Positions 3,545-60,767 of a stretch of 64,000 nt of DNA are shown here, piece after piece (position 1 is the stretch's first letter; each line of letters begins with the position of its first letter). A program made the translations under genes and the position numbers. This DNA comes from Nitrospinota bacterium (GTDB lineage: Bacteria; JADFOP01; DATKYB01): assembly GCA_035528715.1 (NCBI GenBank), contig DATKYB010000054.1:131-64130 (forward strand), read 5' to 3'. The notes under the pieces are model-generated. The model was not told the origin of the DNA and did not search any database. It saw only the letters and a list, made by a program, of their open reading frames with translations.

Positions 3545-3628
3545 TTTATAGAAAAATTAGTAGCTCAAGAGGCATTGTTTGAATGATGAAATCTTTGAGA
3601 TAATATTAATTATAAATAGGGGGTTAGG

Positions 3629-3751
3629 ATGAAAGAAATAACAAAAGAGGATGGAAAACGTTATTTTACATGTGAAGAATGTGGTCTTTTATATAATAAA
3701 AAGGAATGGGCTTTGAAGTGCGAGGCATGGTGCTCGACTCATGATAGCTGA
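3629..3751 (+). CDS. Small (40 aa) zinc-ribbon-like protein: MKEITKEDGKRYFTCEECGLLYNKKEWALKCEAWCSTHDS
   Basis: Below the ORF-track size cutoff. Strong SD (AGGGGGTTAGG) immediately upstream of the ATG. CxxC ... C...C cysteine pattern. Confidence 0.4.
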   Translation: MKEITKEDGKRYFTCEECGLLYNKKEWALKCEAWCSTHDS

Positions 3752-3822
3752 AATTTGGCTATCACGCAGTATGCGGTGAAACCAAACATAAAGTAAAATT
3801 AAGGTTAGATTGTCTCTTTTAG

Positions 3823-4818
3823 TTATTTTTCAGTAATCGATTCTTCTATTTTTTGACCGAAATGTCGTCCGGCTTCTTCTACATAACCCAGAACTTCATC
3901 TCCAGGTTTCAAGTTAACAACTGAGACCGCTTTTCCACCAGGTTTTGTTAATCTGATGGTTTCAGCATTCTGCATGATTAATGAAATAGGGCTGTTTTCG
4001 TATTCTGCTTTGATTAAAATCATAGGACGTTTTTCGATTTTTGCCCTGCCAAGATTAGTTGTATAGGTCGTGCCATCATGATTAACTATTAACAGTTCAT
4101 CACCTGTTTCCAAATCGGTCAGATATTTGGTTTTATTATCAGGAAGTTTTAAGTAGGCATGGACAGCACTTGCATTTACCCTAAATGGCCTTGGCTCGCA
4201 GTAAGGTGTTTGTAAAGATTCTGAGTGAACTAATAAATATCCTGATGAAGTATCACCTACAAGCATGCCTGCTCCTTTACCCATATTTGTGGTTGTATCA
4301 ATACAAACTCTGTCAGCGAGGCCCAACTGTTTTATTTCTACAATTTTTGCTTTGATTAAATTGATTTTTTCTGAGGTTTGAAAAACCACTTTTGACACTT
4401 TCTTTAATTCATTTATGTTTCTTGTCTTTAAAACAACGCCGGCAACACCCTTTTCTAAAATATTTAATGCTATCTCTGCTTCTTTTGAATTTTTGACATA
4501 ACAATAAACGTTTTCTGGATTTGATGCTATCAGGTCTTCTAAGGGGATAATTTTCCAATCTGAAATTTTAGCAATCATTGGCACCTTTTTTACTTTGTCC
4601 ATCGCTTTTTTTTCATCTTCTTTATTATTGATCTCCTGGACTAAAATATCTTTGCCCAATCTGATGTCACCCTTTTGAGAAATGACTTTTATCAACCCCA
4701 ATTTTTTTATCTTTTTGACATCTGTGTCATTGCAAAGGAGTGCATCTGCACCGGATTCTATTGCAGTTGTGACAATCTTTTTATCATAATCAGTTACATC
4801 GACATAAAATTTCTTCAT
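3823..4818 (-). CDS. 3-dehydroquinate synthase II (archaeal-type DHQ synthase, AroB-prime)
   Basis: About 330 aa; its sequence matches the family that works with ADH synthase. Start codon lies 3 nt after the upstream gene's stop, so the two are translationally coupled. Confidence 0.8.
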   Translation of the reverse strand: MKKFYVDVTDYDKKIVTTAIESGADALLCNDTDVKKIKKLGLIKVISQKGDIRLGKDILVQEINNKEDEKKAMDKVKKVPMIAKISDWKIIPLEDLIASNPENVYCYVKNSKEAEIALNILEKGVAGVVLKTRNINELKKVSKVVFQTSEKINLIKAKIVEIKQLGLADRVCIDTTTNMGKGAGMLVGDTSSGYLLVHSESLQTPYCEPRPFRVNASAVHAYLKLPDNKTKYLTDLETGDELLIVNHDGTTYTTNLGRAKIEKRPMILIKAEYENSPISLIMQNAETIRLTKPGGKAVSVVNLKPGDEVLGYVEEAGRHFGQKIEESITEK

Positions 4819-9570: not shown

Positions 9571-10439
9571 CTTTTTTCTAACCTTTTTCTTATCATGTAA
9601 GAAACAAAGAATAGAGTCCCGGTTATCGTAAGTAATATTAAGGAAGCACCATAGCCTCTTGCTAACTCTTCAGCGGATGTATATTCAGCTGCAATATAGA
9701 ATATATAAAAAGGAAGAGCCTCATATTTTGAAAAGATAGAGTCTGGAATGCCTCCAATTGCAACCACCCCGGTAAGCATAATCACAGCAGTGTCTTCAGC
9801 ACATCTTCCAATTGAAAGTATAATACCGCTTAGGATATTCTTGGTTGATTGCGGTAGGCGAATATGCCAAAGATCGTCTAATTTGCTAAAGCCAAGCGAA
9901 GGACCTATGAGCTGTGATTCTTTAGGAATAGAGGATAGAGCAATTTGAGTTGTTTTTATAAGGTAAGGTAAAACCAAGAATGCCAGAGAGAGAGCAGAAA
10001 CAATAAGGCATGTATTCGCTGCTGGCGTAATAAATTTATGGATGAGTAAAACCAGAGAGAACGCAAATAATCCCATAACAATTGATGGTATTCCAGCTAA
10101 AAGATCAATGAAGAAGGAAAACATTGCTTTGAGATTAGCTGGACAGTATTCTGACAGATAAATTCCTGCGGAAATCCCTAAAGGTATTGAAATTGCTGTT
10201 GATAAAATAATAAGAAAAAATGTTCCTACCATTGCTGGCCAGATACCGTCAAATACAATTTGCTTTCCTATCAGAGCCTTATACCAATGCACATCTCCAA
10301 AAATTAACTTTAAACCTAGGTTAGGCATACTTTTGTAAAGTAAAAATCCGATAAGGCATGCAACCACAGTTATAAGGAATATTCCACATGACCAACAGTA
10401 CAAAAATAAGAAATTTTCTATAGTCTGAGTTCTTTTCAT
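9564..10439 (-). CDS. pstA: Phosphate ABC transporter permease PstA
   Basis: Multi-transmembrane ABC permease with the EAA-like loop, placed between pstC and pstB. Confidence 0.85.
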   Translation of the reverse strand: MKRTQTIENFLFLYCWSCGIFLITVVACLIGFLLYKSMPNLGLKLIFGDVHWYKALIGKQIVFDGIWPAMVGTFFLIILSTAISIPLGISAGIYLSEYCPANLKAMFSFFIDLLAGIPSIVMGLFAFSLVLLIHKFITPAANTCLIVSALSLAFLVLPYLIKTTQIALSSIPKESQLIGPSLGFSKLDDLWHIRLPQSTKNILSGIILSIGRCAEDTAVIMLTGVVAIGGIPDSIFSKYEALPFYIFYIAAEYTSAEELARGYGASLILLTITGTLFFVSYMIRKRLEKRW

Positions 10440-18841: not shown

Positions 18842-19534
18842 CTAATATTGTCTCTCTCCAAATATAGTTGTTCCTACCCTTACCATAGTAGCCCCCTCTT
18901 CTATTGCAATCTCAAAATCATTAGACATCCCCATTGAGAGCTCTTCTATAGAAACTCCTTCTATCTCTTGCTTTTCGATCTCATCTTTTAACTCTCGAAG
19001 CTTTATAAAATAGGGCCTGGCATCTTCTGGGTCATTAAAGAAGGGAGGCATGGTCATTAAACCCTTAATAGAAATATGCTCATAGTTAGAAATCTCTTTT
19101 ATGATCTTCATCATCTCTGCTGCTTCCATGCCATATTTTGTCTCTTCCCCTGATATGTTAACCTGGATAAGAATATCCATTACCTTTCCTTTTTTTTTAC
19201 CAATTCTATCAATCTCATGTGCTAATGGAATGCTGTCAACAGAGTGAACCATATCGAAAAGGTCAAAAATATACTTAACCTTATTCCTCTGAAGATGTCC
19301 TATCATATGCCACTTTACATCCCTGCCTATATCTTCTATCTTATCCCTAGCCTCTTGGACCCTGTTTTCTCCAAAAAGTTGATGCCCTGCCTTAATCGCC
19401 TCTTTAATGCGATGAACATCCACAGTTTTGGAAACAGCAATGAGTTTTACCTCATTAGAATTTCTGCCACTTCTCTCCGCAGCCTTTTTCATTCTTTCTT
19501 TAACTTCTAATAGATTATCTTTAATAAAAGACAT
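18842..19534 (-). CDS. YggS family PLP-binding homeostasis protein. The track ORF extends to 19579; the ATG at 19534 (MSFIKDNL...) fits the family length.
   Basis: Alanine-racemase-N-like fold (KLIAVSKT ... HMIGHLQRNK...). About 230 aa from the internal start. Confidence 0.8.
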   Translation of the reverse strand: MSFIKDNLLEVKERMKKAAERSGRNSNEVKLIAVSKTVDVHRIKEAIKAGHQLFGENRVQEARDKIEDIGRDVKWHMIGHLQRNKVKYIFDLFDMVHSVDSIPLAHEIDRIGKKKGKVMDILIQVNISGEETKYGMEAAEMMKIIKEISNYEHISIKGLMTMPPFFNDPEDARPYFIKLRELKDEIEKQEIEGVSIEELSMGMSNDFEIAIEEGATMVRVGTTIFGERQY

Positions 19535-19861
19535 ATCAAAGACTCCAAAAAACCATTGAATATTTTTAAAATATAACATTTAAAAAAAAAGACTTCAACA
19601 AAAATAAGGAAATCTCTCTGCTCTTTCAAATATTTAACTTTGTAAATTATAGGAAATAAGGTATCTTGAGCTAAAGAGTCAAAAATGTGGCAATTTTTTA
19701 TGAAATTTGACAACTATTTGACTGCTCTGCGAAACTTTCAAATAAAAAGTCCCTTCATAAAAAACTCATTAAATCAGAATGTTATACATAAGAAACATTA
19801 GTAAAAAATACTAGGTATATTATTTGCATATTCGGTATATAAATTTTATAGGATTTCTTGA

Positions 19862-20146
19862 ATGTTAGAAAAAACAAATATTGATAATATAAAGAGATTA
19901 ATCCTTTGTATAAGTCACGAAATAAACAATCCTTTAAACACAATATCTCTTAATGCCCAATTATTAAAGAGAACAACGAATGAGGATATCTTAAAACGGG
20001 CAGCTATCATTGACAGTAGTGTGGATAGACTAAAAAATATAATTTCCCAGATGCTCCAATCAGTAAATAACCATCCTAGACATATTAAGAATGCAAAGAT
20101 AATAGATCTTAAAAAATTTAAAGAGAGAAAGATGTTTCATCTCTGA
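19862..20146 (+). CDS. Stand-alone histidine-kinase DHp (HisKA) domain protein of 94 aa with no catalytic ATP-binding domain
   Basis: H-box ISHEINNPLNTISLNAQLL closely resembles the DHp of the PAS kinase at 59058..60767 (IAHEIRNPLTSISGSVQLL). The ORF ends just after DHp helix 2. Weak SD. Confidence 0.4.
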   Translation: MLEKTNIDNIKRLILCISHEINNPLNTISLNAQLLKRTTNEDILKRAAIIDSSVDRLKNIISQMLQSVNNHPRHIKNAKIIDLKKFKERKMFHL

Positions 20147-20162: not shown

Positions 20163-20906
20163 TTATTCTTCATCGGCTAACATTGCTATATTAATCATTC
20201 TCCCCTTTTCTTTATTATTTCTTCGATATGAATAAAATTCTCTATAATGACAACATGTGCATAAATCTATAATCAATATATTTTCTCTTTTAACACCTTC
20301 TTCTAATAACTGATCATAATTTATACCACCAAGATCTAAAAAAAATTTATTATTATCGTTTCCTTTGATATATCTTTTAAAATGAATAAATTCTTTTTTA
20401 AAAAACTCTATTACATTTTCACCCACTTCATAACAACATGCTTTGATAGACGGTCCCATACCAACAAGAACATCACTCGGATTAGCACCAAAGAATTCTT
20501 TTAATTTTTTAATGACTTTCTTTGTAATCTTTAAAAGGGTTCCTTTTCTCCCAGCATGAACTATGGCTATTATCTTTTTTTTGGGATCAAATATAATTAT
20601 TGGGATACAATCAGCGGTCCTAACAGCAATAGGAAGGTTAATCTGATTTGTAATAATTGCATCACCTCTAAAATCATTTAAAGAATCCAAATCAATCTTT
20701 TTTTCAATGATAAGTATATGACTGCTGTGGATTTGTTTTATGGATAAAACCCTCTCTTTAAAAATATTCAAAGCATTGTAAAATTGCTTTTCCTTGTCAT
20801 TCAACCGAAAACTAAATCCATGAATAAAAAATGGAAATTGTTCTAGTCTCTTGAATGTAACATAGCTAATCCTTCTGTAACTTTTTATGAGATAACTATT
20901 CCCCAT
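20163..20906 (-). CDS. pgeF: Peptidoglycan editing factor PgeF (YfiH/YlmD, DUF152 laccase-domain protein)
   Basis: Conserved RTADCIPIIIFD and AIVHAGRKG motifs; canonical position downstream of ftsZ. Confidence 0.85.
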   Translation of the reverse strand: MGNSYLIKSYRRISYVTFKRLEQFPFFIHGFSFRLNDKEKQFYNALNIFKERVLSIKQIHSSHILIIEKKIDLDSLNDFRGDAIITNQINLPIAVRTADCIPIIIFDPKKKIIAIVHAGRKGTLLKITKKVIKKLKEFFGANPSDVLVGMGPSIKACCYEVGENVIEFFKKEFIHFKRYIKGNDNNKFFLDLGGINYDQLLEEGVKRENILIIDLCTCCHYREFYSYRRNNKEKGRMINIAMLADEE

Positions 20907-22599
20907 ATCTTATGTTCTTTTCTCTTTTATTAAAAAGGTAGTCTTTTTCTATGCCGATATCGATATGATCCCACGGAAATATCTCTTTATAATCTCTTTT
21001 TCTATATACATAAAACTCTGGATTAATATTTACCTCTTTAATTGCTTTACGCCAATCTTCCCTTAGATTGTAAGAAGCAAGTAAAAGTTCTCCAACCCTT
21101 CTATCGCCCCTTGATAATATTGCTTGGATAAATGACCATTTGGGAAGTTCATGAATAACAAAGACATTTGCAACCTTTTTCAAGCCATTTTTAATAATCT
21201 TCAACTTTCTTTCTAAAGACTTTACATCCTCCATTCTATCCCATTGAAAAGGGGTAAAAGGCTTGGGAACAAAAGGATTTATACTCAAAGTTATATTCCC
21301 CAATCTTCCTTTTTTTCTCGAGTCTTTTAAGATGTAATGTTTTATCCTTTTTATCAAATCTATTAATCCTTGAATATCTCCCTCTGTTTCAGTTGGAATA
21401 CCAATTAAAAAATACAATTTTATATGCGGTATGTCTTCGGCAGTAATTAATCTTATACCTTTTATAATTTCCTCATCTGTCATCTCTTTATTTATAAACC
21501 TTCTCAGGCGTTCTGTTCCGGCTTCAGGGGCAAACGCCAATGTCTTATGCCCGCTTGCAGCTAAACACTTAATAAAGTCTTCTGAAAGGGCATCAATTCT
21601 TAAAGAAGATACTGATATCTTCCCTCCCATCTTTAAGATAGCGTGACAGATAGACTCTATCTGTGGATGATCCATTAAGGAAGAACCCACAAGACCAATC
21701 TTATTACTATACTGCAATCCTTTTTTAACATCTTCAATGATGATCTCTTTGCTTGAATATCGGGGTGGACCATATACATGACTTGTAACACAAAATTTAC
21801 AGTTTTTCCCGCATCCCCGTTCTATCTCTATAAGATATATATCAGAAAATTCTGTATTCACTGTAAAAATCTTTGTAGAAGTAGGAAAGTTATCGATATT
21901 TTTTGTATATCTTTTCTTTATCTTCTCTGGATAACCCTTCTTTGCCTTAAGAGATCTTATTCTTCCATCAGAATAATAACTAATCTTATATCCTGAAGGG
22001 ATATATATCCCCTCAATTTTAGAAAATCTCTTTACGATTTCCTCCTTTTTTCCTCTAATACCTAAAGTGCTTCTGAATTCATCTAAAAAATCTTTTATTG
22101 CCTCCTCTCCCTCTCCTATTATAAACATATCGATAAAATCTGCTAAAGGCTCTGGATTATAAAAGGTGCAAACACCTCCAGCGATAACGATTGGAAAATA
22201 ATTTTTACGTTGATTTGATAACAAAGGAATCCCAGCTAAATCCAAAATCCTCAAAATGTTTATATAATCTGCTTCGAAGGATATCGAAAAGGCAAGGATA
22301 TTGAAATCTACTATAGGAATTTGACTCTCAAAAGAGAATAGAGGGATTTTTCTTCTGATAAAAACCTCAATATCTTCTTTATCTGGTAAAAATACTCGTT
22401 CACAAACAACATCTTCTTCTTTATTTAATAAATAATAAATATTTTGAAATCCTAAGTTTGACATTCCCACTTGGTAAAGATTGGGATATGCCAAAGCGAC
22501 AGATATTCTATCCCTAAAGGTTTTTTTTACAGTACCTTTTTCATCATTTATCAATCTCCTGATTTTATCAATATACTTCAATGCATCACCAAAAATCAA
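20896..22599 (-). CDS. B12-binding-domain radical SAM protein (TIGR03960-like), embedded in the dcw cluster
   Basis: CGKNCKFC (Cx3Cx2C) radical-SAM motif preceded by a cobalamin-binding-like N-terminal domain. TTG start overlaps the ftsZ stop by 4 nt, and its 3' end overlaps pgeF by 11 nt. Confidence 0.8.
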
Positions 22600-37587: not shown

Positions 37588-37926
37588 TCAATCTTTATCC
37601 TTTAAAAACAAAATCTGTTCTTTCTTTGGGAAGATAAAACCCAGATCCTCAACTGCTAATCTTTCGATTCTATCAAGGGATTTTATACTCGCGATTTCTA
37701 ATCTTAATATTCTATTTTCTTGGAATAGCTTTTCATGTTTGGCTATTAACTCTTGATACTCATAACTAATTTCTATCATCTGATGATGGGGCCACATATA
37801 AAAAAGTGCTCCTACGATAAAAATCAAGATATAAAAAGAAAATAAAGCAGCCTTTCTAAAGTTAATGAGATTTTTTTCTTTACTTAAATTTGGTTTCACG
37901 ATTTTTCCCCTGTTAGCCCTATGCAA
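37588..37926 (-). CDS. ftsL: Cell division protein FtsL
   Basis: Small bitopic protein, transmembrane helix followed by a coiled coil; sits between rsmH and ftsI. Confidence 0.8.
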   Translation of the reverse strand: MHRANRGKIVKPNLSKEKNLINFRKAALFSFYILIFIVGALFYMWPHHQMIEISYEYQELIAKHEKLFQENRILRLEIASIKSLDRIERLAVEDLGFIFPKKEQILFLKDKD

Positions 37927-38857
37927 TTTTTTCAGCCACCCTTAATTTTGCACCTCTTGATCTTGGATTAATCTCTATTTCCTTGAGGGAAGGAACAAGG
38001 GGTTTCTTTGTCAAAATCTCAATCACCTTCTTCTTTCCGCAGATACACTTCGGTATTCTCGGAGAACATGTACATCCTTTTTTATATGAATTAAAAATAT
38101 TTTTTACGATTCTATCCTCTAATGAATGGAAAGATACTACACATAATCTTCCTTTAATTTTAAGAAGTTCTATTGCATCTTTTAGCGCAACTTTTAGAAC
38201 ATCTAATTCTTTATTAACATCTATTCTTAAAGCCTGAAAGGTTTTTGTGGCAGGATGAATGCGTTGTGATTGGTAGGAAAGGGGAATGGCTGATTTAACG
38301 ATCTCAGCCAATTCTTTTGTTGTTCTGATTTCTCTTTTTTCTCTGATATCAACTATCCTCCTTGCAATCCTTTGTGACCATCTTTCTTCTCCATAAAGCC
38401 TCAGTATTTCAATGAGTTCTTTTAAAGAAATATTATTAATTAATGAAAAGGCCGTAATTTCTTGATCAGTGTCCATTCTCATGTCTAATGGACCATTGTA
38501 TTTGAAGCTAAAACCTCTTTCGGGTATTCCTAATTGCCGTGATGAGATGCCTAAATCAAAAAGAATTCCATCTGCCTTCTTGATATTCAGCAAAGAGATG
38601 ATATTCTTAATGTTTTTAAAATCATCTCTTATTATGTGAAATCTTCCCTGAAAAACTCTTAATCGCTTTATAGCTATTTTTATTAAGTCTTTATCTTTAT
38701 CAATGCCTATGAGTATACCTGAAGGGGTGCTCTTTTTTAAAATTTCAAAAGCATGACCTCCTTCTCCCAAAGTACAATCTATAAAAATCTTTCTTGGACC
38801 GCATAAAAGATAATCTAATATCTCATTTAATAAAACTGGGATATGATAATATTTCAT
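37919..38857 (-). CDS. rsmH: 16S rRNA (cytosine1402-N4)-methyltransferase RsmH (MraW)
   Basis: MraW family (HIPVLLNE ... DCTLGEGGH ... FDLGISS). Confidence 0.95.
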   Translation of the reverse strand: MKYYHIPVLLNEILDYLLCGPRKIFIDCTLGEGGHAFEILKKSTPSGILIGIDKDKDLIKIAIKRLRVFQGRFHIIRDDFKNIKNIISLLNIKKADGILFDLGISSRQLGIPERGFSFKYNGPLDMRMDTDQEITAFSLINNISLKELIEILRLYGEERWSQRIARRIVDIREKREIRTTKELAEIVKSAIPLSYQSQRIHPATKTFQALRIDVNKELDVLKVALKDAIELLKIKGRLCVVSFHSLEDRIVKNIFNSYKKGCTCSPRIPKCICGKKKVIEILTKKPLVPSLKEIEINPRSRGAKLRVAEKIA

Positions 38858-38887
38858 TTAACTTTATAATAAAAAAGTTTTTCATAA

Positions 38888-39202
38888 TTAAATAACTTCC
38901 TTTACATTCTCATACCTATCAATTGAGTTATTGAGATCAATTATTTTGATTTCTTTTAAATAGTTTATTAATTTAGGATTTGAAATGTTTTTTAATTTTT
39001 GTAATACCTTTCGTATCCTTACAGATTCCTTCTGGATGAGATCAAGTCTTTGAACAGTCTTTTTATCTAGCTTTTCCTCATTGAATATATGGGTTAAATT
39101 CAACAGTATGACTGAAATAGGCTTCTCCAATCTTTGATTTATCATGTTTGTCATCTCATTTAAAATGATTGGGAATTCATTTTTAAACTTTTCTCTTATC
39201 AT
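38888..39202 (-). CDS. Hypothetical 104-aa protein inserted between mraZ and rsmH; degenerate DHp-like paralogue of the ORF at 19862..20146
   Basis: Aligns with the stand-alone DHp ORF (INQRLEKPIS vs INNPLNTIS; both end ...KIIDL) but has N/M where the phospho-accepting His sits. No other recognisable domain. Confidence 0.5.
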   Translation of the reverse strand: MIREKFKNEFPIILNEMTNMINQRLEKPISVILLNLTHIFNEEKLDKKTVQRLDLIQKESVRIRKVLQKLKNISNPKLINYLKEIKIIDLNNSIDRYENVKEVI

Positions 39203-39230
39203 TGTAAAAAATACTTTAACTTTTTTAAAA

Positions 39231-39671
39231 TTAAAAACCTAACTCGGACAAACCCTCAGCTATATCTTCAAATTTCTCCTTAGATTCTTCAAAAAAAGAA
39301 TCCCACATATTTTTGCTCCAGATCTCCATCTTATTAAGTATGCCTATAATCACAGCTTCGGCATCTAAAGAGATCGATTCTCTTAGATAAGAAGGAATTA
39401 AAATTCTTCCTTGTTTGTCTGTGCTGCATTCTGCAGCACCTGAATAGAGAAGTCTCATAAATGTTCTCACATCTTTTTTCATTGTAGGTAGAGACTTTGT
39501 CTTTTCTTCAAGGATCAGCCATTCTTCTGTTGGGTATGCTACAATACAATTATCAAAATTTATTAATATTAAACGATTACTATATTTTGAGTTCAATATC
39601 TCTCTAAATTTTGCAGGAATATTAAGCCTTCCTTTTTTGTCTAAATTTACATAATATGTACCGATAAACAT
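39231..39671 (-). CDS. mraZ: Transcriptional regulator MraZ
   Basis: Two MraZ repeats, each with a DxxxR-type motif (NLDKKGRLNIP; STDKQGRILIP). First gene of the dcw cluster. Confidence 0.95.
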   Translation of the reverse strand: MFIGTYYVNLDKKGRLNIPAKFREILNSKYSNRLILINFDNCIVAYPTEEWLILEEKTKSLPTMKKDVRTFMRLLYSGAAECSTDKQGRILIPSYLRESISLDAEAVIIGILNKMEIWSKNMWDSFFEESKEKFEDIAEGLSELGF

Positions 39672-39678
39672 AGTTTTT

Positions 39679-39705
39679 TACCCACTTTAACCCACTTTTA
39701 CCCAC
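39679..39705 (-). promoter_or_regulatory. Candidate MraZ operator: three GTGGG direct repeats with 5-nt spacers (GTGGGTAAAAGTGGGTTAAAGTGGGTAAAA, minus strand), ending 8 nt before the mraZ ATG
   Basis: Matches the direct-repeat, 10-bp-periodicity architecture described for MraZ binding in E. coli. Lies downstream of a TTGACA-N17-TATATT promoter. Confidence 0.6.
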
Positions 39706-39715
39706 ATATAATGAA

Positions 39716-39744
39716 AATATATAGAATAGACGACTCTTTGTCAA
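39716..39744 (-). promoter_or_regulatory. Sigma70-type promoter TTGACA-N17-TATATT driving mraZ and the dcw cluster
   Basis: Exact -35 hexamer, 17-nt spacer and TATATT -10 on the minus strand, 45-70 nt upstream of the mraZ ATG. Confidence 0.5.
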
Positions 39745-39866
39745 GTAAATAAATCTTTATTTTTCTTTTTTTAAGGCTTAAAACTAAGAAATTGAAAGCT
39801 TTTAATGAGGATTAGAAAGGAATGAATAAGATAAGAATTAATTGGAAAAGAAATTAGAAAAATATA

Positions 39867-40295
39867 CCAAAGTAGATCATAAGCCGGGTTCTGTACCTAA
39901 AAAATTAGGTGATGATCATTTATCTGGGACACAGGTTACCCTTTGCCTCTAGCGACCTAACCCGAAAGCATCGGACGAGCAATCCTTATTTAGAAATAAG
40001 CAACTTCGTGAATAACCACAAAGTAAAATAGCTTATATCTAAAGTGCTTCCCTATTTGGTCTTGCTCCGGATGGGGTTTGTCAGCTCTCGATGTCACCAT
40101 CGAGACTGGTAAGCTCTTACCTTACCTTTTCACCTTTGCCCTTTTAAAGATTTTTTAAAAGGGTAGTCTCTTTTCTGTGACACTTTCCTTAGGGTTACCC
40201 CTACTGGACGTTATCCAGCATCCTGCTCTGCGGAGCCCGGACTTTCCTCTAGTTTCAAAAAATTTTGAAACCAGCGATCATCTGATCTACTTTGG
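39867..40295 (-). ncRNA. rnpB: RNase P RNA, bacterial type A
   Basis: Minus-strand transcript contains P4 5'-strand AGGAAAGTCCGGGCTCC and P4 3'-strand ACAGAACCCGGCTTA; GGTGAAAAGGTAAGGTAAGAGCTTACC (P10-P12 region); GGAGCAAGACCAAATAGGG. A 13-bp P1 helix (CCAAAGTAGATCA/TGATCTACTTTGG) defines the ends. Region is GC-rich relative to its surroundings. TATAAT about 10 nt upstream of the 5' end. Confidence 0.9.
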
Positions 40296-41210: not shown

Positions 41211-41286
41211 TGGTGGGCCCACCTGGGCTCGAACCAGGGACCTACCGGTTATGAGCCGGTGGCTCTTCCAACTGAGCTATGGGCCC
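41211..41286 (-). tRNA. tRNA with anticodon CAU and CCA encoded; most likely tRNA-Ile2 (lysidine), alternatively elongator tRNA-Met
   Basis: Cloverleaf GGGCCCA-TA-GCTC-AGTTGGAA-GAGC-C-ACCGG-CTCATAA-CCGGT-AGGTC-CCTGG-TTCGAGC-CCAGG-TGGGCCC-A-CCA. G1:C72 excludes an initiator. C4:G69, C5:G68 and C29:G41 match TilS identity elements. It lies immediately downstream of rpoD, as ileX does in E. coli. Confidence 0.9.
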
Positions 41287-51458: not shown

Positions 51459-52523
51459 TTATGTTTTTAAACTCCTCTTTAGAACTTTAAGAAACTCACT
51501 GTTTTCTCTTTCTTGACCAATAGTTACTCTCAAGCAGTTTTCTAATAGTTCTATGTTATTTAAATTTTTTATCAGTATTCCATGCTCTAAGAGACTCCGC
51601 CAGATGTAATTAGCATTTCTTTTTTCTTTAAATAAAATAAAATTAGAATCTGTTGGATAAGGAATAATCCCTTCCAAATTCTCCATGCTAACAAATAATT
51701 TTTCTCTTTCCTTAAGAATAAGTTGAATCTGAGAATTGATGATCTCTTTGTGTCTCAATACAAACCCAGAGATTGCTTGAGAGATTATATTTACATTATA
51801 TGGAAGTTTCACTTTTATCAACTGTTCTACCAGTTCTCTACTAGCAATCATAATACCCACCCTTAAACCTGCCAGCCCAATCTTCGATAGACTCCTAAGA
51901 ATGATAAGATTTTTGAAATCTTTTAAATAGCGAATAAAGGTCTTTTGCGAAAAATCATAATATGCTTCATCCAAAACTACAATCCCATCAGATAAGTCTA
52001 TAACCTCTAACACTTTATCAATAGAAAAGCAGTTACCTGTAGGATTATTTGGGAAACTTAAAAAAGTTGTTCTCGGATGTTCTTCTTTAAGATATTTTTT
52101 AATCGTATCCAAATCTAAATCCCACTTATCGTTTAATGGAACCTTAACCGGAATTTTACCTAAAGCCAGAGATAAAATCTCATACATGGCAAAGGTAGGA
52201 ACCGGAAACAACACCTTTGCTTTAGATTCTCCAAAAGCTATCATAATAGATTGTATCAATTCGTCAGATCCATTGCCTATAATCAGTTGATCCATTTCTA
52301 TTTCAAGATCTTTACTGATAATCTCTTTCAACTTTACAGCATGGGGATCAGGATATCTATTAAAGGCGATGCCTTTTATCTCGCATAACAATCTTTCCTG
52401 AAATTCCTCTGGTAAGGAATATGTACTTTCATTGGCATCCAATTTAATCCTAACAGGAAAATCTTTTACTTCATAAGGTTTTAAATTTCTAATCTCTTCT
52501 CTTACAACCTCTTCTATCTTCAT
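51459..52523 (-). CDS. hisC: Histidinol-phosphate aminotransferase HisC
   Basis: Class II aminotransferase fold with the LSKIGLAG PLP-lysine region. Confidence 0.9.
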   Translation of the reverse strand: MKIEEVVREEIRNLKPYEVKDFPVRIKLDANESTYSLPEEFQERLLCEIKGIAFNRYPDPHAVKLKEIISKDLEIEMDQLIIGNGSDELIQSIMIAFGESKAKVLFPVPTFAMYEILSLALGKIPVKVPLNDKWDLDLDTIKKYLKEEHPRTTFLSFPNNPTGNCFSIDKVLEVIDLSDGIVVLDEAYYDFSQKTFIRYLKDFKNLIILRSLSKIGLAGLRVGIMIASRELVEQLIKVKLPYNVNIISQAISGFVLRHKEIINSQIQLILKEREKLFVSMENLEGIIPYPTDSNFILFKEKRNANYIWRSLLEHGILIKNLNNIELLENCLRVTIGQERENSEFLKVLKRSLKT

Positions 52524-59057: not shown

Positions 59058-60767
59058 TTACTGCGAAGGAAGGAAAATTTGAAAAGCAGTCCCTTCCCCT
59101 GGTTTACTCTTTACCTCTATGATTCCTTTATGATTCTCAATGATCCTACAGACTATTGCTAATCCTAATCCATTACCTCCCTCTTTAGTCGTATAAAAAG
59201 GTTCAAATATCTTTCCAATGTCTTGTTGAGAAATCCCAGTTCCACTGTCCTTAATATTGATCTCTATAAACTTATTTATATTTTCTCTGTCTACTAATTT
59301 TCTAGAAGGAATCTTACTTCTTTCATTATCATCACAATAATGAGTCTCAATCCTGAGAACACCACCCTCTGGCATTGCCTGTGCACTATTTAAATACAAA
59401 TTCCAAAAAACCTGCTTTATCTGTTTTGGATCTACCATTGCATTAATCTTTTTTTGTTTAAAATCTGTAGATATTTCGATATCTGACCGATACTCTTTGT
59501 TGTTTTTGAACAGCCCAATGGTCTCATTAATAATCTCATTTATATTATAGCTGCCAACAACTAAAGGTACTGGACGAGCATAATTTAAAAAATTAGAAAT
59601 GATCGTATTCAATCTCTCTGCCTCTCGAATCACAATGTCCATTAATTGTCTATCAGCCTTTTTCAATCCAAAGGTATCTTTTAAGAGTTGGACCGACCCA
59701 CTGATAGAAGTTAAAGGATTCCTGATCTCATGAGCAATCCCTGCAGCTATTTCTCCGACCGCAGCTAATCTATCTTTTTTTCTTATCTTTTCTTCCATCT
59801 CCTTTAATAGTGTAATGTCTTGAAAAATACCGATGATTCCCTGAATCGTATTTTTTTCATCCCTAAAAGAAGAAAAACTCATTCCTAAAAAGATCTCTTT
59901 TTTATCTTTTCTCTTAAAAATTCCTTCATATCTTTTTGGATCAGTGCTATCTAAAGAGATGTTTCTCGTACTATCGGATAGATCTGGTAAAACAAAAACC
60001 TCATAAAAGAATTTTCCAATGACCTCGTTTTTTTCATAACTGGTCAATTTCTCTGCAGTTTTATTAAAAAAGTTTATCTTTCTATTAATATCAGTGGTAA
60101 ATAAGCCGCTTTCTATACTATTTACAATATTTTCATTAAAGCTCTGGAGCTTGATAAGATGATCCTTTTCCCGCCTCAGTTCCTTTCCTGTGATCTTCAG
60201 CCTTTCTGAAAGATTTCCACTTAAGAATGCAACCAGGAAAAATGCTAAGATATTAAAAAATACTAAGTAAAATACATATCCTGGGTCTAAGGAACTCAAA
60301 ATCTTCCCATAAAAAGAGGCAGGGGATATAAAATTATATAACTCCAGATTTGCCATAGTGCCATATATTACACTGGAAAAAGAGGCAATAATATATCCCC
60401 CTTTTCTTGAAATGATTATGCTTGCGGTTATGATTGAAAATATATATAAAAATGAAAGGGTACTTTGAACACCCCCTGTGACATAATTCACTCCTGCTTC
60501 TATGATTATATCTCCGATGATCTGGACATAAGAGAATAAGATCAGATTCTTTATATTCCTTAATAGAATGGCATATAAAATGGTCAAAAAATAGGTAAGA
60601 CCTATAAGAAAGCTTATATGAATAAGGGCTGGAATTTCACCCCCTTTTTTCTGGAAAATAACTACTACTCCAAGAAAAAGGGTAAGAAATATAACCCTCA
60701 ATAACATTAAGGTTTTTAACCTTCTTTGAAGTTCATTATCGGAAGTATCTGATTGGCTATCAGTCAT
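59058..60767 (-). CDS. Membrane-bound PAS-domain sensor histidine kinase (NtrB/PilS-like)
   Basis: About 6 N-terminal transmembrane helices, a PAS-like segment, DHp with AHEIRNPL, and HATPase_c N/G boxes (NLYLNSAQAM ... DSGTGI ... GGNGLGL). Confidence 0.85.
   Translation of the reverse strand: MTDSQSDTSDNELQRRLKTLMLLRVIFLTLFLGVVVIFQKKGGEIPALIHISFLIGLTYFLTILYAILLRNIKNLILFSYVQIIGDIIIEAGVNYVTGGVQSTLSFLYIFSIITASIIISRKGGYIIASFSSVIYGTMANLELYNFISPASFYGKILSSLDPGYVFYLVFFNILAFFLVAFLSGNLSERLKITGKELRREKDHLIKLQSFNENIVNSIESGLFTTDINRKINFFNKTAEKLTSYEKNEVIGKFFYEVFVLPDLSDSTRNISLDSTDPKRYEGIFKRKDKKEIFLGMSFSSFRDEKNTIQGIIGIFQDITLLKEMEEKIRKKDRLAAVGEIAAGIAHEIRNPLTSISGSVQLLKDTFGLKKADRQLMDIVIREAERLNTIISNFLNYARPVPLVVGSYNINEIINETIGLFKNNKEYRSDIEISTDFKQKKINAMVDPKQIKQVFWNLYLNSAQAMPEGGVLRIETHYCDDNERSKIPSRKLVDRENINKFIEINIKDSGTGISQQDIGKIFEPFYTTKEGGNGLGLAIVCRIIENHKGIIEVKSKPGEGTAFQIFLPSQ

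Follow-up and report, generated by a model that had tools for sequence, protein, structure and literature searches.

The 64,000-nucleotide stretch of DNA analysed here (the window) is part of a Nitrospinota contig (DATKYB010000054.1, positions 131 to 64,130). It encodes two small proteins related to the dimerisation and phospho-acceptor (DHp) domain of histidine kinases. The first open reading frame (ORF), ORF1, encodes a bona fide stand-alone DHp domain of the Pfam HisKA type, without a kinase attached. The second, ORF2, encodes a pseudo-DHp protein that lacks the phospho-accepting His and whose gene lies between mraZ and rsmH. In the reading that we prefer, and to which we give an even chance of being right, both are functional members of a family of DHp proteins devoid of the catalytic and ATP-binding (CA) domain. 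ORF1 would act as a phosphatase or phosphotransfer protein on the receiver (REC) domains of response regulators, under sigma-54 control, and ORF2 would act by binding only. A first-pass annotation of this DNA had drawn attention to both genes; its observations are confirmed in part, and its interpretation is partly supported. Coordinates of the features discussed are collected in Table 1.

Against the Pfam HisKA profile (PF00512; gathering score 26.9 bits) ORF1 scores 48.3 bits (E 1.1e-12). Its H-box is complete, with the phospho-accepting His (H19), the adjacent acidic residue (E20), the phosphatase Asn at His+4 (N23) and P24 all present. Across six ORF1 orthologues H19, N23 and P24 are invariant, and position 20 is Glu or Asp. 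The AlphaFold2 model of ORF1 is a helical hairpin (residues 2-37 and 40-69) with a predicted local distance difference test (pLDDT) value of 78.6, above 90 in the core; past the hairpin come a low-confidence linker and then a short helix. Foldseek comparison with the PDB places the DHp domains of DivL, HK853, LvrB and PhoR at the top for ORF1. Match probabilities are about 1 for the models of both ORF1 and ORF2, with E-values of only 0.05-0.5, because the fold is a small hairpin of some 70 residues. In profile searches of the PDB the best matches are LvrB (E 1.6e-8) and ZraS (5e-7), which have the same H-box flavour, HEI(N/R)NPL. The profile score, the hairpin model and the fold matches together bear out the original description of ORF1 as an isolated DHp domain.

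The absence of an ATP-binding domain, also noted at first pass, holds. The Pfam scan gave no HATPase_c match in ORF1 or ORF2, every ORF1 orthologue is 93-94 aa long, and there is no room for a CA domain after ORF1, since its stop codon lies 16 nt from that of the convergent pgeF gene. Neither protein has the CA domain C-terminal to DHp that marks a canonical sensor histidine kinase. Only 17-21 residues precede the H-box in ORF1 and ORF2, so an N-terminal sensor domain is lacking as well.

ORF1 had further been called a near-copy of the DHp domain of a PAS kinase encoded in the window at 59058-60767 (-). That gene encodes a complete PilS-like PAS kinase, which carries the sole CA domain of the window. 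Its identity to ORF1 is 37% over 68 aa and the positions after the His differ, which amounts to generic HisKA similarity; the near-copy claim fails, and derivation of ORF1 from this local kinase was rejected. BLASTP of ORF2 against the same kinase gave no significant alignment.

ORF1 orthologues fall into six 90%-identity clusters spanning 54-100% identity. Between lineages the synonymous sites are saturated (proportion of differing synonymous sites, pS, 0.69-1.0), while the nonsynonymous proportion (pN) is only 0.20. The resulting ratio of nonsynonymous to synonymous rates (dN/dS) is at most about 0.12, like that of the neighbouring pgeF. At the amino acid level ORF1 (62-64% identity) is more conserved than pgeF (52-57%). 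Of the positions in the H-box and the C-terminal half of alpha-1, 16 of 20 are invariant among the six orthologues. The N-terminal half of alpha-2 (11 of 15) and the tail (5 of 8) are also rich in invariant positions, against 0-18% in the N-terminus of alpha-1, the loop, the C-terminus of alpha-2, the linker and the C-terminal end. In complexes of the HK853-RR468 type these two helical segments form the REC docking surface and bear the specificity residues. Conservation in ORF1 is thus concentrated on a putative response-regulator docking face.

The conservation of motifs upstream suggests that ORF1 has its own sigma-54-type promoter. The 280-nt upstream region is poorly conserved among orthologous loci, save for two blocks. 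In each of the four orthologous lineages examined, a putative -24/-12 element precedes the ATG by 33-37 nt (loci are given L numbers, family proteins P numbers). It reads TGGCAT-ATTAT-TTGCT (TGGCATATTATTTGCT) in L001 and L003, AGGTAT-ATTAT-TTGCA (AGGTATATTATTTGCA) in L005, which is the same as in the window, and TGGCAT-AGTAA-TTGCT (TGGCATAGTAATTGCT) in the most divergent lineage (L094-96; 54% protein identity). The exact pattern GGYAT-N5-TTGCW is found exactly once per ORF1 locus, at the homologous place, and three times in the window, where 0.41 occurrences are expected. The two other matches in the window, at 10183-10197 (+) and 51843-51857 (-), may be due to chance, as by their coordinates both appear to lie inside long ORFs.

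Two ATTTGAC direct repeats 11 nt apart are part of a repeat element that precedes the -24/-12 element by about 90-135 nt; TTTGAC copies at -145 to -191 are conserved in orthologous ORF1 loci. This position matches the usual distance of an enhancer-binding-protein site, and we regard the element as a candidate for such a site. Scans for sigma-70 promoters and terminators around ORF1 gave nothing above chance.

In ORF2 the phospho-accepting His is replaced by Gln23, and the adjacent Glu and the His+4 Asn are lost as well (Q-R-L-E-K-P). The first-pass annotation was right that the His is gone and wrong about its substitute, given as Asn or Met; the profile alignment identifies Gln23. It had also aligned ORF2 to ORF1 directly and treated the two as paralogues. 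A direct BLASTP comparison is not significant (E 9.7) and identity is just 21-23% or so, which disposes of close paralogy. The alignment survives at the profile level only, in a HisKA register that pairs His19 with Gln23, Pro24 with Pro28 and KIIDL with KIIDL (ORF1/ORF2). The shared KIIDL near the two C-termini had been seen correctly.

The AlphaFold2 model of ORF2, computed from a 20-sequence family alignment (pLDDT 86.8), has helices at residues 2-42 and 47-72. Like the ORF1 model, it has the two-helix antiparallel hairpin of HisKA domains. Three short strands (73-75, 78-81 and 85-88, at a pLDDT of about 89) follow the hairpin, so the C-terminal tail, P-K-L-I-N-Y-L-K-E-I-K-I-I-D-L, is predicted to form a small beta-hairpin or meander. 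Top Foldseek matches in the PDB are the DHp domains of ZraS, CpxA, GacS and ERS1, and the RetS-GacS complex (7n0e) is among the matches. A sequence search of the PDB with a 3-sequence ORF2 profile returned only a designed repeat protein and was uninformative.

ORF2 orthologues at about 98%, 70% and 57-60% identity are all encoded directly after mraZ and are all His-less. A metagenome scan with the ORF2 alignment added the same species only (L100) among the matches listed. The dN/dS ratio is 0.29 for ORF2, compared with 0.05 for mraZ and 0.14 for rsmH; ORF2 is constrained, yet evolving faster than its neighbours. The most conserved part of the ORF2 group is the beta tail (13 of 17 positions invariant), not the H-box region.

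These data bear on whether the two ORFs are non-functional leftovers of degraded kinase genes, as the first-pass annotation allowed, or spurious ORFs in AT-rich DNA. The ORFs are short, the genome is AT-rich, and ORF2 both falls below the HisKA threshold and evolves quickly (71% identity, where MraZ has 95% and RsmH 89%). However, the length and place of both ORFs are preserved in relatives, with ORF2 directly after mraZ. Length, frame and position persist across lineages whose synonymous sites are saturated, and both genes are under purifying selection (dN/dS 0.12-0.29). No remnant DNA flanks either gene. ORF1 has its conserved candidate promoter, and a Shine-Dalgarno-like sequence is carried by its orthologous loci; structure predictions are confident, and the C-terminus is conserved throughout the family described below. 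A pseudogene or remnant origin is effectively refuted, and we find this explanation hardly credible.

Pfam identification of the flanking genes and a survey of about 70 loci confirm that ORF2 lies between mraZ and rsmH, and that these are normally adjacent. The mraZ stop is 28 nt from the ORF2 start, and the ORF2 stop 30 nt from the rsmH start, which leaves no space for a CA domain. With gaps this short, no terminator-like site found in a scan of 38700-39900 and a promoter upstream, ORF2 is presumably co-transcribed with the dcw operon (mraZ, rsmH, ftsL). The GTGGG repeats before mraZ look like MraZ boxes, by comparison with the published MraZ repeats of E. coli and Mycoplasma. MraZ would then presumably control ORF2 along with the rest of the operon.

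Anchoring the survey on RsmH, with a single genome for each GTDB species, gave 80 loci. Among the roughly 70 with mraZ upstream, the estimated mraZ-rsmH gap is at most about 50 nt in most and below 250 nt in all but one. In the two nearest Nitrospinota (L009 and L010; RsmH 59% and 56% identical) the gap is about 5 nt and ORF2 is absent. The lone exception is L070, a metagenome-assembled genome (MAG) of Candidatus Binatia (DATDFN010000362.1), with an unrelated ORF at 3570-3998 (+) between the two genes. The mraZ-X-rsmH order with ORF2 is real, rare and confined to a narrow clade. Our literature search found nothing on a gene between mraZ and rsmH. The L070 ORF was judged by eye to be STAS- or anti-sigma-antagonist-like (…VVLNLRSVDHINYLSIGVLLERLKVLRNLNGDLKLAG…), and would be another signalling protein in the same slot in another phylum.

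ORF1 is located at the ftsZ-distal end of the division (dcw/ylm) cluster, on the strand opposite to the whole cluster; its placement in the ylm region at first pass is upheld by its ylmE-like and pgeF/ylmD-like neighbours. On contigs that are long enough, ORF1 is found downstream of ftsZ and a radical-SAM gene, in convergent orientation to pgeF and, as a rule, in divergent orientation to ylmE. The pgeF synteny was seen in L001-L005 and L094-L099. In one lineage a Fur gene takes the place of ylmE upstream.

Both proteins might on these grounds take part in division regulation, for example by linking genes of the FtsZ ring or of septal peptidoglycan to a two-component signal. The two genes share one 22-kb division cluster, ORF1 stays between ylmE and pgeF in orthologues as distant as 54% identity, ORF2 lies within an operon presumed to be MraZ-controlled, and the STAS-like protein of the Binatia MAG occupies the same mraZ-rsmH slot. 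This evidence is one of location, however. ORF1 is encoded on the other strand, behind a putative promoter of its own, and beside one orthologue Fur replaces ylmE; ORF2 is missing from the nearest Nitrospinota; and other members of the family are in unrelated contexts. A functional link to division is an unproven, position-based hypothesis, and we consider it distinctly unlikely.

Word-indexed homologue searches reached 4, 2 and 6 clusters, and the wider family required exhaustive HMMER searching. The ORF2 profile was searched in this way against 1.84 billion representatives (E <1e-3) and gave 60 hits, a small number owing to the use of the divergent His-less member as query. Forty-nine of these align almost gap-free over a module of about 95 aa and end within about 25 aa of a KMIDL motif:

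ErL.ai.etAvtvNHEINNPLT.iLGN.qLLL..(about 8)..kLk.Ie....RI..v..kL..i.eP....Y..g.KMiDl..S

Hits other than the His-less mraZ-linked orthologues keep an intact H-box (consensus v-N-H-E-I-N-N-P-L-T). The tail consensus of the family is Y-x2-G-x-K-M-I-D-L, and what lies past the module is mostly a short charged tail. Apart from P0007, which is His-less and matches no Pfam profile, the members scanned are HisKA-positive; none has HATPase_c. The module either is the whole protein (74-125 aa) or follows, at the C-terminus, TPR, REC, PAS, GAF-PAS or REC-PAS domains. These C-termini are genuine rather than truncations at contig ends, because other genes follow on long contigs. One member, P0023, combines REC-DHp(tail)-REC in a single protein, an architecture that is sensible only for phosphotransfer or phosphatase chemistry.

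A family hidden Markov model (HMM) was built from the 49 sequences, with ORF1 left out. It matches ORF1 with 45.1 bits over positions 2-92 of 95, tail included, and the CA-bearing kinase of the window in its DHp part only (positions 2-72). The 72 bits obtained for ORF2 are circular, since the family was fished with the profile of ORF2 itself. ORF2 bears the full tail motif (N-Y-L-K-E-I-K-I-I-D-L), modelled as the beta strands mentioned above. In the ORF1 group the tail is (A/S)-K-(I/V)-I-D-L-x-(K/E)-F, with no Tyr and no Gly, and is modelled at low confidence.

No NCBIfam model is dedicated to these proteins: the hits, headed by AtoS and NtrB, all score far under their cut-offs and cover no more than the DHp part of AtoS, NtrB and similar kinases. 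The tail is described by no Pfam or NCBIfam model. Kinases of the LvrB, ZraS and AtoS/NtrB types differ in bearing a CA domain, and alignments with them stop at the end of alpha-2. Source databases name members 'hypothetical protein', 'tetratricopeptide repeat protein', 'histidine kinase dimerization/phospho-acceptor domain-containing protein' or 'nitrogen-specific signal transduction histidine kinase'. A literature search found no description of the conserved-tail family or of a His-less member.

The closest His-containing stand-alone relative of ORF2 is P0009 (125 aa), at the locus L090:1481-2162 (+). Its gene is preceded by a 57-aa HTH_17 gene, about 75 nt upstream of which is a sigma-54-like match to GGYAT-N5-TTGCW; flgM and genes for a REC-GAF-GGDEF and a PilZ protein are in the vicinity. 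In P0027 and P0051 the module is followed by a long low-complexity extension with repeated 'PGFEDY(L/M/I)', which may represent short linear interaction motifs.

In canonical kinases the region that corresponds to the tail is the beginning of CA: matches of the profile to HK853 reach profile position 86, and the window kinase reads 'P-x8-Y-N-I-N-E-I-I' at the tail position ('SYNINEII' segment). By this alignment the tail is probably a co-opted vestige of the first CA strand and of the linker between DHp and CA. The same alignment, along with the strong conservation of the tail across the family, could instead mean that a DHp-only protein is the phospho-acceptor half of a split kinase whose tail recruits a CA domain in trans. 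Isolated CA of EnvZ trans-phosphorylates isolated DHp in vitro. No stand-alone HATPase_c gene was found beside ORF1, ORF2 or the other members examined, however, and the single CA domain in the window is inside a complete kinase. The scheme is inapplicable to ORF2, whose acceptor His is missing. We consider a split kinase very unlikely.

Spo0B of Bacillus and ChpT of Caulobacter are dimeric DHp-like four-helix bundles that shuttle phosphate between REC domains and have no kinase activity. They retain a degenerate CA-like alpha/beta domain and match Pfam HisKA poorly. A similar logic is suggested by the REC-DHp-REC architecture of P0023. Unlike Spo0B and ChpT, ORF1 is a canonical HisKA protein with only a short tail past the hairpin; no C-terminal CA-like pseudo-ATPase domain follows the tail in ORF1 or ORF2, and PDB searches gave no sequence match to Spo0B or ChpT.

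Proteins with 'HisKA, no HATPase' were listed by Galperin et al. 2018 (PMC5847659; 'possible incomplete histidine kinase' in P2CS) and were noted also in Galperin 2005 (PMC1183210). A phosphoacceptor, phosphotransfer or phosphatase role was proposed for them, without experimental data (PMC5847659). Like ORF1, they retain the conserved His in their DHp domain and have nothing recognisable as a CA domain. ORF1 belongs to this known yet uncharacterised kind; ORF2 shares the lack of HATPase_c but not the His. The listed examples are mainly archaeal (Archaeoglobi, Methanomicrobia) with N-terminal PAS or GAF domains, whereas ORF1 and ORF2 are bacterial and sensor-less. Absent from that description are the Y..G.KMIDL tail, a His-less derivative and sigma-54 control.

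The isolated DHp domains of EnvZ and NtrB are reported as phosphatases (Zhu et al. 2000; Kramer & Weiss 1999; as cited in PMC3510030), and the Asn of the H-E-x-x-N motif is required for DHp phosphatase activity (PMC3510030). ORF1 resembles EnvZ 'domain A' and the NtrB H-domain in being a CA-less DHp, and it keeps H-E-x-x-N. Those pieces are laboratory truncations, whereas ORF1 is naturally encoded, with predicted transcription of its own and a putative activity.

ORF1 retains all that a DHp requires for handling a phosphoryl group on a REC domain: the His, its acidic neighbour and the His+4 Asn. We infer that it would form a homodimeric four-helix bundle and dock the REC domain of a response regulator. 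There it may serve as an auxiliary phosphatase, or as a Spo0B/ChpT-like phosphotransfer shuttle or sink; lacking a CA domain, it is unable to autophosphorylate. Given the sigma-54-type promoter and the upstream activator site, its level would be set by an enhancer-binding response regulator of the NtrC type, which could be its own target and so close a negative-feedback loop. ORF2, with His, Glu and Asn all lost, is unable to carry phosphate and is confined to binding, whether of a REC domain or of a second DHp domain, possibly ORF1. Its dosage would follow expression of the dcw operon if it is co-transcribed with mraZ, rsmH and ftsL as presumed.

The two roles proposed at first pass, phosphotransfer intermediate and kinase modulator, are both live mechanistic options. 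As modulators, ORF1 and/or ORF2 would insert into or laterally bind the DHp domain of a kinase and poison or retune its autophosphorylation, in the manner of a dominant-negative 'half kinase'. Their fold is a dimerisation module, and RetS-GacS, whose DHp co-complex is among the ORF2 fold matches, is an established precedent for DHp-DHp inhibition. The loss of catalytic residues in ORF2 requires a binding-only role, and its most conserved part is the tail. Binding of a protein to the DHp domain of a kinase, as by RetS on GacS or by Sda and KipI, is the mechanism that best fits ORF2. RetS, in contrast, is a full-length hybrid kinase, while ORF2 is a minimal DHp with a predicted beta-hairpin tail; Sda and KipI have unrelated folds.

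By analogy with RetS-GacS this explanation fits ORF2 better than ORF1. The strict His, the His+4 Asn and the REC-facing conservation of ORF1 would be needless in a mere dimer poison, and the sole kinase of the window is only 37% identical to ORF1 and differs from it just after the His. No kinase is consistently adjacent to the family members examined, and the REC-DHp and REC-DHp-REC fusions point to REC-directed chemistry. Modulation of a kinase by one or both proteins seems to us doubtful, though a serious possibility.

Several findings weigh against the reading that ORF1 is REC-directed and sigma-54-controlled and that ORF2 belongs with it. The loose sigma-54 consensus, with one mismatch allowed, is not significantly enriched in the window (12 occurrences, 5.6 expected), so the sigma-54 call is one of phylogenetic footprinting and not of motif statistics. 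No response regulator, enhancer-binding protein or rpoN gene was found within the window, nor any REC domain, and for this reason we nominate no partner for ORF1. The conserved alpha-1 and alpha-2 segments are also bundle-core positions, so their conservation is no specific proof of REC docking. ORF2 scores 19.9 bits against Pfam HisKA (E 7.9e-4), below the gathering score, so that the profile check proposed at first pass succeeds for ORF1 and falls short for ORF2; hhalign of the two small families gives an E-value of about 1e-3 and a probability of 22%. ORF1 scores no better with the family HMM (45 bits) than with Pfam HisKA (48), and because it lacks the Tyr and Gly it is less securely placed in the tail subfamily than ORF2. 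The neighbourhoods of three other stand-alone members are variable, with no conserved partner and no CA-only gene.

A bolder version of the preferred reading goes further. Tail-bearing CA-less DHp proteins would be a widespread, distinct class of REC-directed phosphatases or phosphotransferases, with the beta-hairpin tail as a new partner-binding device. ORF1 (sigma-54-induced and catalytic) and ORF2 (a His-less decoy) would work as a pair, through a heterodimer or through competition for a regulator, and tie a two-component signal to expression of the division operon. We consider this unlikely.

Kinase-less 'HisKA, no HATPase' proteins are listed in genome censuses as 'incomplete kinases' and have been neglected experimentally. 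ORF1 is a minimal case, with 94 aa and no sensor domain, and since it has a sigma-54-type input and a conserved putative docking face, the choice between phosphatase and phosphotransfer is directly testable in vitro. The analysis defines a coherent family whose C-terminal tail is conserved and probably structured, and which includes a natural His-less derivative at the mraZ-rsmH junction, a place that is almost never interrupted. What is new is the tail-bearing family, its His-less member in the mraZ operon and the putative sigma-54 control of ORF1, as variants on a known theme. Should the two proteins turn out to modulate a response regulator, two-component signalling would gain an auxiliary regulator of a new kind; otherwise the work still corrects the 'histidine kinase' annotations of these proteins.

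Table 1. Positions of the features discussed, in window coordinates
Feature	Position	Strand	Description
ORF1	19862..20146	+	94-aa stand-alone DHp (HisKA); H-box S-H19-E-I-N-N23-P-L; KIIDLxKF C-terminal tail
Candidate sigma-54 -24/-12 promoter	19813..19828	+	AGGTAT-ATTAT-TTGCA (AGGTATATTATTTGCA); GG-N10-GC; 33 nt upstream of ORF1 ATG
Upstream repeat element (candidate enhancer-binding-protein site)	19677..19723	.	Imperfect 21-nt inverted repeat AGTCAAAAATGTGGCAATTTT / AAATTTGACAACTATTTGACT; repeat finder
ylmE/yggS-like pyridoxal phosphate-binding gene	18842..19579	-	Pfam Ala_racemase_N; divergent from ORF1
pgeF/ylmD-like gene (Cu-oxidase_4)	20163..20906	-	Pfam 198 bits; conserved downstream neighbour, convergent with ORF1
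ORF2	38888..39202	-	104-aa His-less pseudo-DHp; H-box equivalent N-Q23-R-L-E-K-P28
rsmH (mraW)	37919..38857	-	Pfam Methyltransf_5 389 bits
mraZ	39231..39671	-	Pfam MraZ 122.6 bits; first dcw operon gene
Three GTGGG repeats	39705-39701, 39695-39691, 39685-39681	-	Exact 10-nt spacing, just before mraZ
dcw promoter TTGACA-17-TATATT	39744-39716	-	Promoter scan, 11/12 matches; strong, near-consensus, sigma-70-like

The ylmE/YggS-like ORF as mechanically called has 245 aa. Since 230 aa is the length called for its orthologues, translation probably begins at the ATG at 19534 (MSFIKDN…), with which the intergenic region between ORF1 and ylmE is about 327 nt. Between ftsZ and pgeF/ylmD the window encodes a 567-aa radical SAM protein (20896-22599, -), whose orthologues match Pfam Radical_SAM_N2 and Radical_SAM. 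The order ftsZ / radical SAM / pgeF is kept in all related loci (L001, L005, L094), and the protein is an odd member for a division cluster.

The PAS kinase at 59058-60767 has a PilS-like N-terminal domain with six transmembrane segments (PF25323). Judged by eye, it adjoins type IV pilus / type II secretion-like genes, and its downstream neighbour is apparently rho; no PilR-type regulator was found next to it, the window having no REC domain. Directly upstream of the dcw promoter and mraZ is a bacterial class A RNase P RNA (Rfam RF00010, 322 bits; 39865-40293, -), and a tRNA-Met is found at 41211-41286 (-).

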